DNA of 5,580 nucleotides from a virus. Positions 952-5,580 of the stretch are shown here, piece by piece (positions within the stretch are counted from its first letter, which is position 1; the number at the start of each line of letters is the position of its first letter). Where the stretch lies: IMG/VR virus record IMGVR_UViG_3300045988_003785; one strand, written 5' to 3'. The translations under genes were made by a program, and so were the position numbers. The notes under the pieces were generated by a model. It was not told the origin of the DNA, made no database searches, and saw only the letters and a program-made list of their open reading frames with translations.

Positions 952-1411
952 TTTCCGAAAAAACGTAACGGCAAAACCAACCGAAGCCGGGGAAAGAGTG
1001 AGACGCACATATCTCTGGGAACGCAACGAAAAAGGCGAAAAGGTACTGAAACTCGACCAAATCATCGACCAGCAAGCGGAAATCGACTCCTACTTGGATG
1101 AAACCAAAATAGAAAACATCATCCGACGGGCAAGCGTCGACCCGAACATCGCGGAACGAATCGCACCGGACTTAGGCGGCGGCATCCAAGACTTTACCGA
1201 GGTGCCGCATACGTTAGCCGAGATTCAAAACGTCATGATTCGCGCAGAACAAATCTGGGACGAAGTGCCGAAAGAAGCAAAGCTCAAATTTGATAACGAT
1301 GTCAATAAATTCATCGCATCGTTTGGCACAGTCGAATGGGCTAAAAATCTGGGTATCTACACCGACGTCAAAACACCCGAAGCGACAGAAGCAACGGAGG
1401 AAAAAGAATGA
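929..1411 (+). CDS. VP3: VP3-like internal scaffolding protein, 160 aa from ATG 929
   Basis: The ORF-track frame is open from 872, but ATG 929 has AGGAG (914-918) upstream, whereas ATG 872 lies deep inside VP5. The C-terminal half (..DFTEVPHTLAEIQNVMIRAEQIWDEVPKEAKLKFDNDVNKFIASF..) fits my memory of the VP3 pattern (D/Y.ea.n....A...F..LP...r..F.NdP..F..f). The stop overlaps the VP1 ATG as ATGA. Confidence 0.65.
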   Translation: MAFRSVSNFRKNVTAKPTEAGERVRRTYLWERNEKGEKVLKLDQIIDQQAEIDSYLDETKIENIIRRASVDPNIAERIAPDLGGGIQDFTEVPHTLAEIQNVMIRAEQIWDEVPKEAKLKFDNDVNKFIASFGTVEWAKNLGIYTDVKTPEATEATEEKE

Positions 1412-3111
1412 ACAGAAACAAAGACGCGGGATTTAACCAAGTACCGCGACTGGACATCACAAGAAGCCGTTTCAAAAGGCGGCAGGACGTCAAATTAACG
1501 CTTGACGCAGGAAAGCTCATCCCATTTTACGTGGATGAAGTATTGCCGGGTGATACTTTCAGCATCGACCAAGCGGCAATCATCCGCATGACAACGCCCA
1601 TCTTTCCAGTTATGGACAACTGCTACATGGACATCTATTATTTTTTCACTCCTAACCGAATCCTTTGGAAAAACTGGAAGCGATTTATGGGCGAGAACGA
1701 TACAGGGCCGTGGGCACAGAAGCGAGAATACACAATCCCACAAATCAGAATCTATGCAGACAGCCGCAATGACGTACCGCTGGAAGGAAGCCTCATGGAC
1801 TACATGGGGATACCGACAAAAGCATGCAAAAAAGGCAATAAAAATACAGAGTTCGAAGTAAACGCACTTCCATTCAGAGCATATGCCATGATATGGCAAG
1901 AGTGGTTCAGAGACCAAAATGTAGATAATCCTGCCATAAACAGCGACGGAGACGAAACAGTAAGCTACTCAGACGTCAACGACGATAACAAAATAGACGA
2001 AATGCTTCAAGAAGCATATCGAGGCGGCAGACCGTTACCAGTCAACAAGTTCCACGACTACTTCACATCGGCAACGCCGAGCCCACAGAAATCGCTAGAA
2101 CCAGTAACCATTCCGCTGACTGGAAGTGCACCGCTAGGAATGTACAGCCCGGCAACAGGAAAAGTAACAATCAACAGCGCCGAAATGAAAAAAATAGCAA
2201 AAGATGCAGGACTGTTGAGCACAGGCAGCACCTTTAACGCCACGGATTGGGACGTCGGAGACGGACCAATAGCAAACCAAGGACTAGCAGTAGGAAGAAA
2301 TACAGGGTCCATATACAGTGGAATAACCTTAGGAGCAGACCTCTCAAAGGTCAACGCAACGACTATAAACCAGCTGCGACAGGCGTTCCAGGTGCAAAAG
2401 TATTACGAAGAACTTGCACGAGGCGGCAGCCGATACCGTGAGATGATTTATTCGCTGTTCCATACCAAAATCAGCGATAAAACCGTGCAGATTCCGGAAT
2501 ACCTTGGTGGTACACGTATCACTATCAACATGAGTCAGGTCATCCAGACCAGCGGCACGACTACTGAGAGTCCGCAGGGTAACACGGCGGCAGTATCCGT
2601 GACGCCGTACAATGGAAGCATGTTTACGAAAAGCTTCGAGGAACACGGCTATGTTATCGGTGTATGTTGCATCCGGCATGACCATACCTACCAGCAGGGA
2701 CTCGAGCGGATGTGGAGCCGCAAAACAAACCTGGACTTTTATTACCCGGTGTTTGCAAATCTGGGCGAACAAGCAATTCTCAAGAAGGAAATCTATCTAA
2801 CCGGCACGGAAACCGACGAACAGGCGTTCGGATACCAAGAAGCGTGGGCAGAATACCGAATGAAACCAAACCGAATCTGTGGCAAATTCCGGAGCAACGC
2901 AACGGGAACGCTGGATAGTTGGCACTACGGCGACAACTACAAAGAAACGCCAAGCTTAAGCCAAGCATGGATGAAAGAAGGAAAAGAGGAAATCCAGAGG
3001 ACGCTAGCGGTAGAAAATGAACCGCAATTTATCATGGACACTATCATCGACAACACAAGCGTAAGACCCATGCCTATGTACAGCATTCCGGGACTCGTCG
3101 ACCATCACTAA
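1408..3111 (+). CDS. VP1: Major capsid protein VP1 (Microviridae F-protein family), 567 aa
   Basis: GGAGG at 1396-1400 with a 7-nt spacer. Hallmark blocks are present: RSRF.R....K.T.DAGKLIPFYVDEVLPGDTF, PIFPVMDN, FFTPNR.LW.NW..FMGE, HDYFTSATPSPQK, TIN.LRQAFQ.QK..E..ARGG.RY.E, IPEYLGG. The size is typical of gokushovirus VP1. Confidence 0.97.
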   Translation: MNRNKDAGFNQVPRLDITRSRFKRRQDVKLTLDAGKLIPFYVDEVLPGDTFSIDQAAIIRMTTPIFPVMDNCYMDIYYFFTPNRILWKNWKRFMGENDTGPWAQKREYTIPQIRIYADSRNDVPLEGSLMDYMGIPTKACKKGNKNTEFEVNALPFRAYAMIWQEWFRDQNVDNPAINSDGDETVSYSDVNDDNKIDEMLQEAYRGGRPLPVNKFHDYFTSATPSPQKSLEPVTIPLTGSAPLGMYSPATGKVTINSAEMKKIAKDAGLLSTGSTFNATDWDVGDGPIANQGLAVGRNTGSIYSGITLGADLSKVNATTINQLRQAFQVQKYYEELARGGSRYREMIYSLFHTKISDKTVQIPEYLGGTRITINMSQVIQTSGTTTESPQGNTAAVSVTPYNGSMFTKSFEEHGYVIGVCCIRHDHTYQQGLERMWSRKTNLDFYYPVFANLGEQAILKKEIYLTGTETDEQAFGYQEAWAEYRMKPNRICGKFRSNATGTLDSWHYGDNYKETPSLSQAWMKEGKEEIQRTLAVENEPQFIMDTIIDNTSVRPMPMYSIPGLVDHH

Positions 3112-3156: not shown

Positions 3157-4035
3157 ATGGGAGTTTTAGCAACACTCGGAACGGGGCTCCTCAAAGCAGT
3201 AGCGCCAAGCCTAATAGGAGCAGCAGCAAATAAACTGTTTGGCACAAGCTCAAGCTACGGACAGCAAGGACAAGCAAACAGTCAAAGCAGTGGCTCAAGC
3301 TGGTCGCAAGGCTCAAGCGACAGCGCAAGTTTCAGCAACGGCGGCACAAACGACGAAATGAACAAAACCATTGCGGCACTAGCAAACCAGATAAGTCAAG
3401 GAAACATGGCCGGACAGCAAAAGTTCAATCGAAATTCGATGCTTATGCAAATGGGATACAACACCTTAGGAGCAATCCAGCAAGGCATATACAACCACAT
3501 CGAACAGCAAACAGCCATGAACTACAACTCAGCAGAAGCCGCAAGAAACAGAGCATGGCAAGAGCAGATGAGCAACACAGCTTACCAAAGAGCCGTCGAA
3601 GATATGCGAAAAGCAGGAATCAATCCAATCTTAGCATACACACAAGGCGGCGCAAGCACTCCAAGCGGAGCGCAAGGAACAATCGGGAGTGCAAGCATGG
3701 GCATGGCATCCAGTAGCGCACTAGGAGCAACAGCGTTACCAGGCATAAAACAAGACGGTAGTTGGAGTAGTCATAGCGAAGCATGGAGTCACGCAGAAAA
3801 CGCAGCAGAGAGCATCCAACAAGCCATCATGTCGAGCAGCTCAAGCCCGGTAAGACTCAAAGGAGACATGGAAGCCATAGCCGAGACGGCAGTAGAAAAC
3901 GCAGCCAAACTCAAAGAAAAATTCGCGGCCTTACCAGTGGCAGACAAAGCAAAAAATGAGCTTGCAGGACGATTAGAAAATACAAGAAGATACTTACCCA
4001 CAGGCTACATGAGCATAAATCCGAGAGGTAAATAA
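3157..4035 (+). CDS. VP2: Minor capsid / DNA pilot protein VP2 (H-like), 292 aa
   Basis: The N-terminus is hydrophobic and Gly/Ala-rich (MGVLATLGTGLLKAVAPSLIGAAANKLFG). The signature block NRAWQEQMSNTAYQRAVEDMRKAGINPILAY is typical of gokushovirus VP2. It sits immediately after VP1. Confidence 0.9.
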   Translation: MGVLATLGTGLLKAVAPSLIGAAANKLFGTSSSYGQQGQANSQSSGSSWSQGSSDSASFSNGGTNDEMNKTIAALANQISQGNMAGQQKFNRNSMLMQMGYNTLGAIQQGIYNHIEQQTAMNYNSAEAARNRAWQEQMSNTAYQRAVEDMRKAGINPILAYTQGGASTPSGAQGTIGSASMGMASSSALGATALPGIKQDGSWSSHSEAWSHAENAAESIQQAIMSSSSSPVRLKGDMEAIAETAVENAAKLKEKFAALPVADKAKNELAGRLENTRRYLPTGYMSINPRGK

Positions 4036-5055
4036 ATGGGATGCAATAAGCCGTTAATTCGGTTTTATGTACCTCATAACAGAGAGGCGAGCGGGCGAGT
4101 ATACACACTCGCCTCTTTTAATAAGATACATAAGACAAACCTTAGGTATGAAGACCTAATGTACAGGAAAGACGTAATGATGATACCATGCGGACAATGT
4201 ACCGGGTGCAGACTACGCAAACGCAAAGACTGGTCAACGCGAATGGAACTAGAAGCATACGGACACAACAAAGAAACCATCTGGTTTATTACACTGACTT
4301 ACGATGATGACCACGTACCAACACAGGACACAGAAACAGGTGAAATCTATAAAGGCGGCATAAACATCTGGAAAGGCACCTCAGAGCGTCCAAGAACGGC
4401 GCAAACGCTGAGCGTAGAGGATACCCAACTATTTATAAAAAGGCTCAGAAAAGCCTTCAAAGAGCCTCTGAGATACTTTTTAGCAGGAGAGTACGGAGAC
4501 AACACAGCAAGACCGCACTATCATATGATACTATATGGATGGCATCCAGACGATTTAAAACCAATCCACAAATTGTCAAGACACGGTCATTATACAAGTG
4601 ATAAACTGGTAAAAATCTGGGGACAAGGCACAGTGGACATAGCGCAAGCAACGCCAGAAACATATAATTATGTTGCAGGGTATGTAACTAAAAAGCTGTA
4701 CGGCAACGACAAAATGCGTTACCAAAAAATGGGTTTAATACCGCCATTTTGCACCATGAGCCGTAAGCCGGGACTCGGGGATAAGTGGTTTGAAGACAAC
4801 CAAGAACGACTCTGGCAACAGGGATACATACAGCTTACCAACGGCAAAAAAGCGGCAATCCCAGAATACTATTGGCGAAAGCTGGAGGCTGAAAACCCAG
4901 AAAAAGCATGGAGAATCAAGAAATATCGACAGCAAAAAGCTATAGCATCCCTAATCGAAAGAAACGCGGAAACCGATAAATCATATGCAGAGCAACTAAA
5001 GGACAAAGAAACATCTATGTCCAAAAAAATGAGAAAAGCCAAAGGCGTATTTTGA
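4036..5055 (+). CDS. VP4: Replication initiation protein VP4 (HUH rolling-circle endonuclease, phiX174 A-like), 339 aa
   Basis: The start abuts the VP2 stop (TAAATG), with GAGGT at 4025-4029. It has PCGQCTGCR (Cys cluster), motif 1 FITLTY (4285-4302), HUH motif PHYHMILY (H-Y-H at 4516-4524), and the two-tyrosine motif YNYVAGYVTKK (Y212 and Y216, nt 4669-4683), as in superfamily-I Reps with the Y-x-x-x-Y spacing. Confidence 0.95.
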   Translation: MGCNKPLIRFYVPHNREASGRVYTLASFNKIHKTNLRYEDLMYRKDVMMIPCGQCTGCRLRKRKDWSTRMELEAYGHNKETIWFITLTYDDDHVPTQDTETGEIYKGGINIWKGTSERPRTAQTLSVEDTQLFIKRLRKAFKEPLRYFLAGEYGDNTARPHYHMILYGWHPDDLKPIHKLSRHGHYTSDKLVKIWGQGTVDIAQATPETYNYVAGYVTKKLYGNDKMRYQKMGLIPPFCTMSRKPGLGDKWFEDNQERLWQQGYIQLTNGKKAAIPEYYWRKLEAENPEKAWRIKKYRQQKAIASLIERNAETDKSYAEQLKDKETSMSKKMRKAKGVF

Positions 5056-5066
5056 GACTTTGGTGT

Positions 5067-5115
5067 CACTCAGCCAAGTAACTATCAAGTAAGCTACTTG
5101 GCTGAGTGTTTTATT
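5067..5115 (+). terminator. Strong hairpin plus T-tract after VP4 (operon terminator; also a stable ssDNA hairpin)
   Basis: CACTCAGCCAAGTA (5067-5080) and TACTTGGCTGAGTG (5095-5108) form a perfect 14-bp stem with a 14-nt loop, followed by TTTTATT (5109-5115). It starts 12 nt after the VP4 stop. Confidence 0.7.
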
Positions 5116-5125
5116 GATTCGTTAA

Positions 5126-5167
5126 ATGCACACGCACGCGCACGTAATCGCGCACGCGCACGTGCAT
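5126..5167. repeat. GC-rich alternating purine/pyrimidine block with a 13-nt direct repeat (CGCACGCGCACGT x2)
   Basis: CGCACGCGCACGT occurs at 5133-5145 and again at 5151-5163, an 18-nt period. Strict R/Y alternation runs over 5126-5146 and 5149-5167. The block is flanked by inverted AATGCAC (5125-5131) and GTGCATT (5162-5168). Confidence 0.85.
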
Positions 5168-5190
5168 TATATTATTATTTTTATTATTAA
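5166..5190. other. 25-nt tract of pure A/T (candidate DNA-unwinding element)
   Basis: ATTATATTATTATTTTTATTATTAA has no G or C for 25 consecutive bases. It sits between the GC block and the TAG repeats. Confidence 0.5.
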
Positions 5191-5197
5191 CTTGTTG

Positions 5198-5212
5198 TAG
5201 TAGTAGTAGTAG
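5198..5212 (+). repeat. (TAG)5 trinucleotide repeat, preceded by (TTG)2; DnaA-trio-like
   Basis: TAG x5 at 5198-5212, read directly, with TTGTTG at 5192-5197. Read 3'->5' each unit is GAT, the DnaA-trio unit described for Bacillus subtilis oriC. The repeat is certain; the function is inferred. Confidence 0.5.
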
Positions 5213-5290
5213 GGAGTGTTGAAATGTTGAATACTATGAATTTTTATCCTTGGAACGATATTTTTTGGCTAATTTTAATGTTGATACTTT

Positions 5291-5299
5291 TGTGGATAA
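5291..5299 (-). promoter_or_regulatory. Perfect match to the DnaA-box consensus (TTATCCACA on the minus strand)
   Basis: The + strand reads TGTGGATAA, the exact reverse complement of the 9-mer TTATCCACA. A second box, TGTGGAAAA (5355-5363), fits the relaxed TTWTNCACA consensus. Binding is untested. Confidence 0.5.
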
Positions 5300-5328
5300 T
5301 TTGTTGAAATGTTGAGAATGTAGCAATA

Positions 5329-5348
5329 TGCACAAAAACCTTTGTGCA
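5329..5348. other. 8-bp hairpin inside the 9-mer array
   Basis: TGCACAAA (5329-5336), loop AACC, TTTGTGCA (5341-5348): a perfect stem. Confidence 0.5.
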
Positions 5349-5407
5349 ACATTTTGTGGAAAACCTGTTGAAAGTGTTGAAAGTGTTGAAAACGCAATTA
5401 GAGGCAG

Positions 5408-5471
5408 TTCGGCAGCTGGCCGAAAAGTCACGTCATGCTCTTCGTACGGCGCACCGCGCCTAGCGCATGAC
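5408..5471. other. GC-rich hairpin cluster upstream of the promoter
   Basis: Three stems: TTCGGC / loop AGCTG / GCCGAA (5408-5424); GTCATGC (5432-5438) paired with GCATGAC (5465-5471); and, enclosed by the second, GGCGC / loop ACC / GCGCC (5448-5460). Confidence 0.5.
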
Positions 5472-5499
5472 CTATCAGAAAAAGTTTCAAAAAAAACTA

Positions 5500-5528
5500 T
5501 TGGCAAATCGACAGTTATATGGTACAAT
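5500..5528 (+). promoter_or_regulatory. Sigma-70/SigA-type promoter with extended -10
   Basis: -35 TTGGCA (5500-5505), a 17-nt spacer, TG at 5520-5521, and -10 TACAAT (5523-5528). An A-rich, UP-like stretch lies at 5479-5496. The predicted start is near 5535 (equivalent to 10), just upstream of the SD and ATG of ORF59. Confidence 0.7.
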
Positions 5529-5580
5529 GCAGATAGTAAAGGAGGTATAAAGATGAGAACTGTCAATCATCTGAGCATCA
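5526..5580. repeat. Terminal direct repeat, copy 2 (duplicates the ORF59 SD and first 9 codons)
   Basis: Identical to 1-55. ATG 5553 corresponds to ATG 28. Confidence 0.95.

Follow-up and report, generated by a model that had tools for sequence, protein, structure and literature searches.

The window, i.e. the whole stretch of 5,580 nt from IMG/VR record IMGVR_UViG_3300045988_003785 that was analyzed, comprises the complete, circular genome (5525 nt) of a gokushovirus plus a terminal redundancy of 55 nt, the first 55 nt being present again at the end. Within its non-coding region, a module of ~230 nt (5166-5392) was identified which consists of an A/T tract, five TAG repeats and at least ten co-oriented DnaA boxes. 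The module is conserved among gut gokushoviruses, and its architecture matches that of chromosomal origins of the Oscillospiraceae/Ruminococcus type. It is probable that it represents a phage-borne copy of a Clostridial origin of the dnaA-dnaN type, comprising a box array and a DnaA-trio basal unwinding system (BUS), which most likely acts on the double-stranded replicative form (RF) of the genome. An earlier note on this DNA had covered only one end of the module (5166-5233).

Architecture and conservation of the module

Starting at the A/T-rich end, the + strand shows 25 nt of pure A/T (ATTATATTATTATTTTTATTATTAA, 5166-5190), a candidate duplex-unwinding element distal to the trios, which is followed by CTTGTTG (5191-5197) and the (TAG)5 run (5198-5212), here taken as DnaA-trios (3′-GAT-5′). 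The junction of the two former segments forms the phage-specific motif AACTTGTTG (5189-5197) adjoining the trios. A purine/G-rich gap of 4 nt (GGAG, 5213-5216), the counterpart of the “GC-rich region” of a BUS, separates the trios from two tandem, co-oriented DnaA boxes, TGTTGAAA (8 nt, 5217-5224) and TGTTGAATA (9 nt, 5225-5233). On direct reading, this succession is exactly the one described in the earlier note, whose two 9-mers overlap by one base (T5225). Two more box clusters follow on the same strand. The second (5279-5317) is composed of TGTTGATAC, TGTGGATAA, TGTTGAAAT and TGTTGAGA, the third (5355-5392) of TGTGGAAAA, two copies of TGTTGAAAG and TGTTGAAAA at offsets of about 162, 173, 182 and 191. 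A perfect DnaA box (TGTGGATAA, 5291-5299) and TGTGGAAAA (5355-5363) had both been missed before; TGTTGAGA at 5310-5317 is the tenth box. All ten boxes (5217-5392) have the same orientation, and their start-to-start spacing inside the clusters is 8-12 bp, which fits the box clusters of an oriC. A short hairpin (TGCACAAA/TTTGTGCA, 5329-5348) lies between the second and the third cluster and is conserved in a subset of relatives. The motif TGTKGAWW occurs 12 times in the window, nine times on the + strand within 5217-5391, while 1.96 occurrences are expected for the whole window and the maximum in shuffled sequences was six. The (TAG)5 run did not appear in any of 200 shuffles.

For the BUS of B. 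subtilis, Pelliciari et al. 2021 (PMC8287927, Tables S1/S2) give AATAGGTGT, TTAGGTGT, CCGG and GATGATAATGAAGATGAT, written 3′ to 5′. The trio strand in 5′ to 3′ direction therefore starts with A/T-rich DNA and continues with TAGTAGAAGTAATAGTAG, GGCC, TGTGGATT and TGTGGATAA; the spacer is 12 nt, as it is in the Listeria and Staphylococcus entries (PMC8287927). According to the search rules of the same work, a BUS contains at least three NAN trios, preferably 3′-GAT-5′, and a box within 0-16 bp, 12-13 being the commonest spacer, and by default the program accepts up to two mismatches from the standard DnaA-box motif (PMC8287927). In the window, there are five trios, a 25-nt A/T tract and, after the 4-nt gap, a tandem pair of 8 and 9 nt with a spacer of 12, whose orientation is identical to that of the B. 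subtilis, Listeria and Staphylococcus boxes. The BUS layout proposed in the earlier note is borne out in order, orientation, gap, box lengths and spacer, and the box orientation assumed there agrees with the published tables (PMC8287927). The note had also cautioned that the two trio-proximal 9-mers deviate from TGTGGATAA at three positions. Each of them has indeed three mismatches to this E. coli motif, while each has only one to TGTTGAAAA. Since TGTTGAAAA dominates the chromosomal origins of the likely host lineages, the caveat probably carries little weight. Once this motif of the lineage is used, the module fits every criterion that can be applied to a BUS at the sequence level.

The module shares with the B. 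subtilis oriC BUS (Richardson 2016/2019, Pelliciari 2021/2023) the series of A/T-rich DNA, TAG-type trios, 4-nt gap and an 8-nt followed by a 9-nt box. Unlike the latter, it contains boxes of the TGTTGAAA type instead of TGTGGATAA, it possesses the additional invariant AACTTGTTG between trios and A/T tract, its A/T tract is short in most relatives, and it resides on the 5.5-kb genome of a single-stranded DNA (ssDNA) phage which encodes neither dnaA nor dnaN.

A BLAST search with the non-coding region yielded 45 gokushoviruses in GenBank, whose sources were the faeces of humans, monkeys, pigs, dogs and mink. In some GenBank relatives the module region is the sole match at the DNA level, e.g. 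in KT264799, which matches the window only at 5181-5232. Alignments were made with 20 GenBank relatives, then with four close relatives, and then with IMG/VR genomes retrieved by the core pattern. The module was detected in at least 120 IMG/VR genomes, the VP4 proteins of which are 33-96% identical to that of the window, in 72 of the 80 closest VP1 relatives and altogether in more than 160 gut gokushovirus genomes. By contrast, 83 other gokushoviruses, environmental and cultured (388 kb), revealed no core match and at most three co-oriented boxes per 260 nt.

The common layout of the modules is an A/T run, TAAC-TTGTTG, TAG-NNG-TAG-TAG-TAG, a purine-rich gap of 4 nt and a box pair whose distances from the anchor, 25 and 33, are kept in 137 and 131 of 141 modules. 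Then follow a variable A/T spacer of ~45 nt, boxes at 87, 99, 110 and 118 (each kept in 117-122 of the 141), a short hairpin or spacer, and four boxes at ~162-191. On average, a module carries 9.4 co-oriented boxes and 0.12 reversed ones. The commonest 9-mers are TGTTGAAAA (351), TGTTGAAAG (271) and TGTGGAAAA (135). At the same aligned box site, TGTGG alternates with TGTTG and GATAA with GAAAA among the phages, which fits a single tolerant binder, TGTGGAAAA and TGTGGATAA being classical DnaA boxes. Many relatives have TGTGGAAAA, one mismatch from the E. coli motif, at the trio-proximal site. Spo0A boxes (TGTCGAA) were rejected as an explanation of the array, since the six tabulated box sites with a fixed offset have T or G as their fourth base, A or C being rare there.

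Tract length was measured with a length-agnostic pattern in which only the flanks were fixed. The distance from TTGTTG to the first box, that is, trio tract plus gap, amounts to 19 nt in 128 of 129 modules and to 22 nt in the remaining one. Among 21 GenBank relatives, 19 have an intact TAG run, and the substitutions in the other two preserve the triplet frame. A neutral microsatellite, the freely varying repeat number of which the earlier note had named as an argument against its reading, can therefore be ruled out. In 96-98% of 128 modules, TAG occupies each of the box-proximal triplets 3-5, in agreement with published work in which at least three trios were needed for function, while triplet 2 may be TAG, TCG, GAG, ACG or CCG. 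The gap differs in sequence (GGAG, AGTA, GGGC, AGGT and others) and always measures 4 nt. Directly upstream of TAAC, 9-10 nt are pure A/T in the 141 related modules, and the A/T tract of the relatives measures about 9-13 nt. The T, A, A and C preceding TTGTTG are present in 140, 121, 141 and 128 of 141 modules, respectively.

Match to bacterial chromosomal origins

A pattern representing only the phage core (TAGNANTAGNNNNNGTKGAAANGTTGAA) was scanned over bacterial genomes, one per species. There was no microvirus among the 101 bacterial matches, 74 of which lie between dnaA and dnaN, 15 beside one of these genes at the edge of a cut locus and 12 elsewhere. DnaA and DnaN were confirmed by Pfam in all four loci tested. 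The organisms belong mostly to the Oscillospiraceae, Ruminococcus, other Eubacteriales and Clostridia, Lachnospiraceae and Selenomonas. As in incC of B. subtilis, the trios of these origins are located towards dnaN, and their strand is always opposite to the dnaA coding strand.

The resemblance extends to details. Like the phage modules, the origins of Oscillospiraceae, Ruminococcus, Lachnospiraceae and Selenomonas possess five TAG-type trios with trio 4 as the most variable one, a GGGC or GGAG gap (GGGC in 48 of 89 origins), the tandem box pair of the phage core, TGT(T/G)GAAA and NGTTGAA, and TGTTGAAAA as the dominant box. Beyond the two boxes forced by the pattern, TGTTGAAAA is the top 9-mer, found 110 times in trio-strand orientation and 34 times reversed. 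The second and third phage box clusters are colinear with clusters of the host origins, and some phage modules are ~70% identical to host origins over ~200 nt, the box clusters being colinear down to the GAAAACTTGTTGAAA junction. The host origins differ from the phage modules in lacking AACTTGTTG, in their longer A/T tracts (about 20 nt beyond the trios, with 82-92% A/T in that 20 nt), in being flanked by dnaA and dnaN, and in their content of reversed boxes (1.6 per 260 nt versus 0.12 in the phages). The phage module is not chromosomal, does not border on dnaA or dnaN and is not necessarily the only origin, since it is located between the VP4 terminator and the first promoter of a genome that encodes a HUH Rep. 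Hence, it is an oriC-like element and not an oriC proper. It appears to be a mimic or a captured copy of the chromosomal origin of the likely host lineage.

Two observations were made on the bacterial side. In the origins of Oscillospiraceae, Ruminococcus, Lachnospiraceae and Selenomonas (L142-L242), the main DnaA box is TGTTGAAAA (TTTTCAACA), and a very regular BUS composed of (TAG)5, GGGC and tandem boxes is present. A published table lists TGTTGAAAA boxes in Ruminococcus albus 7, and the published BUS prediction for this strain chose a low-scoring trio candidate, probably through use of the E. coli motif.

The bacterial matches also bear on the question whether the likeness to a BUS is coincidental, with iterons for VP4 or VP5 lying beside a neutral TAG microsatellite. 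Rolling-circle plasmids and circular Rep-encoding single-stranded (CRESS) DNA viruses have Rep-binding iterons near the nick site, and VP5 falls into a PHROG annotated as DNA-binding. However, the length of the repeat is fixed in all modules except one, the box sequence is unchanged across VP4 proteins as different as those given above, the Spo0A box TGTCGAA was never matched, and the core pattern retrieved chromosomal origins in 89 of 101 matches. The probability of a chance resemblance is thus negligible, and binding of the boxes by a phage protein is practically excluded by the host origins, which use the same boxes without any such protein.

Function, strand polarity and alternative explanations

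On the basis of these data, the following mechanism is proposed. Host DnaA-ATP would bind to the ~10 co-oriented TGT(T/G)GA(A/T)AA boxes on the double-stranded RF, oligomerise from the tandem pair (5217-5233) onto the TAG strand (5198-5212) and melt the adjoining AACTTGTTG/A/T tract (5166-5197). The resulting bubble might load the host replicative helicase via the Firmicute DnaA-DnaD-DnaB-DnaI route, and the RF, as a DnaA-dependent mini-replicon, might then be copied by the host machinery. The HUH endonuclease VP4 may likewise profit from local opening at its hairpin origin ~100 bp away. The purpose of the opening is the least certain step. Helicase loading and host-driven RF replication are favoured, as what the phage has retained is more than a melting site, namely the full set of boxes of an origin. 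Access of VP4 to its nick site is the main alternative and is compatible with helicase loading.

Neither a DnaA-like protein nor an obvious sequence-specific DNA-binding domain was found among the phage proteins (PHROG/Pfam), and a phage-encoded box binder was dismissed since there is no candidate domain apart from the generic VP5 and J-like proteins. That the phage carries a close copy of an origin suggests recruitment of host DnaA. The absence of such phage proteins, the lack of a fold in the single strand (see below) and the occurrence of the module in either orientation argue for an action on the duplex.

Several points weigh against this interpretation. With three mismatches each to the E. 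coli consensus, the trio-proximal boxes would not be called under the default setting of the Pelliciari program. The central A by which a trio is defined is often missing from triplet 2 (it is present in 66 of 128 modules), and the A/T tract of most relatives, at ~10-13 nt, does not reach the length seen in host origins. There is no equivalent of the invariant AACTTGTTG in host origins. Binding of DnaA, unwinding and loading of the helicase have all been deduced from sequence, and the host assignment is a prediction from origin similarity. The known Microviridae replicate by a VP4/gpA rolling circle and are not known to need DnaA.

The nick site of VP4 is probably the canonical gokushovirus hairpin, which is located on the − strand of the window (5063-5108). 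It comprises a stem (5067-5080/5095-5108), the loop GCTTACTTGATAGT, in which TTACTTGAT corresponds to 5084-5092, and the flank TGACAC (5063-5068). Read on the − strand, 5067-5108 is CACTCAGCCAAGTA-gcTTACTTGATagt-TACTTGGCTGAGTG-ACACC; on the + strand, the hairpin doubles as the VP4 terminator. In the hairpin shared by gokushoviruses, the loop reads c(t/c)tACTTG(A/T)T and the stem is followed by TGACAC. The phiX174 gpA decamer CAACTTG^ATA was read from NC_001422, where the rep_origin is annotated at 4306. It agrees at eight of ten positions with the gokushovirus loop (CTACTTGAT; environmental consensus CTACTTGATG), and the loop of the window has the same core, ACTTGAT.

HUH endonucleases cut single-stranded DNA. 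It is conceivable that module and hairpin form a composite rolling-circle origin, in which melting by DnaA, without any helicase loading, replaces or assists supercoil-driven hairpin extrusion and exposes ssDNA for VP4, either at the hairpin (5067-5108) or at AACTTGTTG; candidate substrates would be TAACTTGTTGTAG, TTAACTTGTTGTAGT and the hairpin loop GCTTACTTGATAGT. The relationship of the loop to the gpA decamer and the closeness of the gut-clade hairpin to the module, from which it is separated by a few hundred bp at most (~100 bp in the window), are in line with this idea, as is the sequence ACTTGTTGTA beside the trios, which is identical to the hairpin loop of phiMH2K, matches that of SpV4 at nine of ten positions, does not vary among the phages and is missing from host origins. 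As in the viral-strand origin of phiX174 (CAACTTG^ATATTAATAAC), the ACTTG core of the trio-side motif is adjacent to A/T-rich DNA. In contrast to the phiX174 and gokushovirus origins, this motif is not in a hairpin loop, lacks the TGACAC flank and has no fixed strand relative to the genes; the full element of a Microviridae nick site is at 5063-5108 on the − strand. AACTTGTTG could be half a DnaA box, since the 9-mer turns up where boxes meet, or a second Rep-type (ACTTG) site in view of the identity of ACTTGTTGTA with the phiMH2K loop. Two points weaken the latter option: its strand is not locked to the hairpin, which argues against a primary nick site, and phage block C as well as host locus L182 contain the 9-mer as an ordinary joint between boxes (GAAAA-CT-TGTTGAA). 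The 9-mer recurs ~109 nt downstream in most relatives, where it joins two boxes. Further arguments against the composite origin are that the orientation of the module relative to hairpin and genes is not fixed (opposite strands in 117 cases, the same strand in nine) and that in one inverted type the box end instead of the A/T end faces the hairpin. Moreover, other gokushoviruses manage with the hairpin alone, and a complete array of ten boxes exceeds the needs of local melting. For these reasons, we consider a composite origin unlikely, if worth keeping in mind, and prefer an origin copy that acts on the RF.

The position of the array raises the question whether it merely binds DnaA, either as a datA-like decoy that titrates the protein by ten boxes per RF copy and thereby delays initiation in the host, or as a regulatory site of the promoter-like sequence at 5500-5528, in both cases without unwinding. 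The array lies 110-280 bp upstream of this sole strong promoter-like site, and initiation in B. subtilis is modulated by clusters of DnaA boxes that lie outside oriC, as outlined in PMC3245932. On the other hand, titration or repression would require neither trios nor a fixed 4-nt gap, a 19-nt tract and an A/T tract, all of which are conserved as strictly as the boxes, so that such a role is extremely unlikely.

According to the earlier note, the TAG strand is the strand packaged as ssDNA. DnaA-ATP bound to the incoming single-stranded trios would then start complementary-strand synthesis by a DnaA-type primosome. Cultured microviruses package the coding strand, and the TAG strand is the coding strand in the window and in 112 of 120 IMG/VR genomes (among the matches listed). 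In E. coli plasmids, a DnaA-box hairpin can nucleate the ABC primosome on ssDNA. This assumption was not supported by our data. DnaA boxes need duplex DNA, and the boxes of the module cannot pair with each other as they are all co-oriented. The module strand (5160-5400) does not form a significant single-strand fold (z = +0.51), for which reason a structured ssDNA element or a complementary-strand origin was rejected for this region, and the only weak stem that includes the perfect box (I5, 5288-5298 with 5327-5337) is lost where relatives have TGTTGAAAA. A comparison with known RNA families gave only a single match below the threshold. Furthermore, the module is inverted relative to VP1/VP4 in eight of 120 IMG/VR genomes (among the matches listed) and in five of 21 GenBank genomes, which means at least two arrangements, and the hairpin with the nick motif is on the opposite strand in 132 of 166 gut-clade genomes scanned. 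Packaging of the TAG strand with DnaA acting on it is accordingly judged very unlikely.

Of 80 environmental gokushoviruses (L328-L407), 41 have the hairpin on the coding strand and three have it on the opposite one. In the gut clade, it is on the non-coding strand only in 92 of 120 (L022-L141) and 39 of 46 genomes (L282-L327), on both strands in one and on the coding strand alone in none; 33 of the 166 gut-clade genomes scanned lack a canonical hairpin. If the hairpin marks the strand that is nicked and packaged, the TAG strand of the window is not the virion strand and the gut clade may package the antisense strand. Its members would then be the first negative-sense microviruses. Base composition proved uninformative as an indicator of the packaged strand because the coding strand of phiMH2K is also A-rich and T-poor. 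The coding strand of inverted genomes was also searched for AACTTG that might substitute for the nick site in the hairpin, and no consistent candidate emerged.

One inverted lineage (L017, L018, L056, L079, L120, L125, L132) has an ancestral-type hairpin, with the loop CTTACTTGTCTAT followed by TGACACCTC, on the same strand as the trios. It lies 30-100 nt upstream of the A/T tract, and the arrangement looks like an intermediate between a hairpin origin and the DnaA module. A more far-reaching scenario is offered only tentatively and is possible rather than probable: the whole clade from human and animal guts would have captured an Oscillospirales-type host origin, its RF would be a DnaA-dependent mini-chromosome coupled to the cell cycle, which would amount to a plasmid-like carrier state in a phage family regarded as strictly rolling-circle, and it may package the antisense strand.

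DnaA boxes that recruit the host initiator are known from mobile elements such as P1 oriR, pSC101, F and R6K. These origins combine few boxes with iterons for an initiator of their own, unlike the phage module, and we know of no DnaA-trio BUS and no colinear copy of a chromosomal origin in such plasmid and phage origins. A search for plasmid relatives of the module found none. The A site of the ABC primosome is a DnaA box in a hairpin of ssDNA. It resembles the module as a DnaA-dependent route for a single-stranded replicon and differs from it in needing the box in a stem, while the phage boxes are co-oriented on an unstructured strand. Among phages, DnaA boxes have been described at the injection stop signal of T5, as outlined in bioRxiv 10.1101/866236, which is, like the plasmid origins, another case of DnaA boxes on a mobile element.

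In the literature searched, there was no paper linking microviruses or gokushoviruses with DnaA boxes, trios or oriC. Neither the BUS nor oriC is novel in itself; a DnaA unwinding module of the oriC type would, however, be new for an ssDNA phage. If our interpretation is true, the gokushovirus would be, within this literature, the first virus with a DnaA-trio BUS and give the first sign of a microvirus that uses the host initiator DnaA. Host-controlled RF replication would be a possible mode of persistence for these phages. For this group of abundant, uncultured gut gokushoviruses, the module provides a sequence-based host prediction, namely Oscillospiraceae, Ruminococcus and related Clostridia. 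The more than 160 modules are also natural, compact (~230 bp) variants of a Clostridial origin under selection. They could be used to dissect the rules of the BUS, e.g. why trio 4 is free and why the gap always measures 4 nt, and could help to build replicons for genetically intractable gut anaerobes.

Other features of the genome

All genes of the window are on the + strand. They encode VP5 (712-951), the scaffold protein VP3 (about 929-1411), the capsid protein VP1 (1408-3111), the pilot protein VP2 (3157-4035) and the HUH replication protein VP4 (4036-5055). The sole long non-coding stretch (5056-5552) has the hairpin (5067-5108) at its start and the promoter-like site at its end. The latter (5500-5528; TTGGCA-17-TACAAT, with an extended -10 TG) is the only strong sigma-70-like promoter and lies just 5′ of the first gene. 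Nearly every gene is preceded by a strong ribosome-binding site of the AGGAGG type. Promoter type and ribosome-binding sites are consistent with a Firmicute-type host, and the predicted Clostridia hosts fit these strong Shine-Dalgarno sites. On the − strand, an open reading frame of 110 aa (5234-5566) runs antisense across the box array. It has no PHROG/Pfam match and is most likely spurious.

The A/T tract is adjoined by a GC-rich, imperfect palindrome of alternating purines and pyrimidines (5125-5168), which includes two copies of a 13-nt direct repeat (CGCACGCGCACGT). A comparable (CG/CA)n palindrome is present in many relatives, and others have a different GC-rich hairpin in its place. The palindrome could form Z-DNA or a cruciform.

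Downstream of the module, a conserved element is located at 5395-5480. In 70 of 177 related genomes, it was found ~200-230 nt 3′ of the module anchor, its strand being that of the module in every case. A variable hairpin comes first and is followed by a second one of 40 nt (ACGTCATGCTCTTCGYACGGCGCACCGCGCCTASCGCATGAC) that is nearly invariant; the ssDNA fold of the element has a z of -2.8. Covariation in the element gave no support because the second hairpin hardly varies. The element is a candidate for a complementary-strand origin or a protein site.

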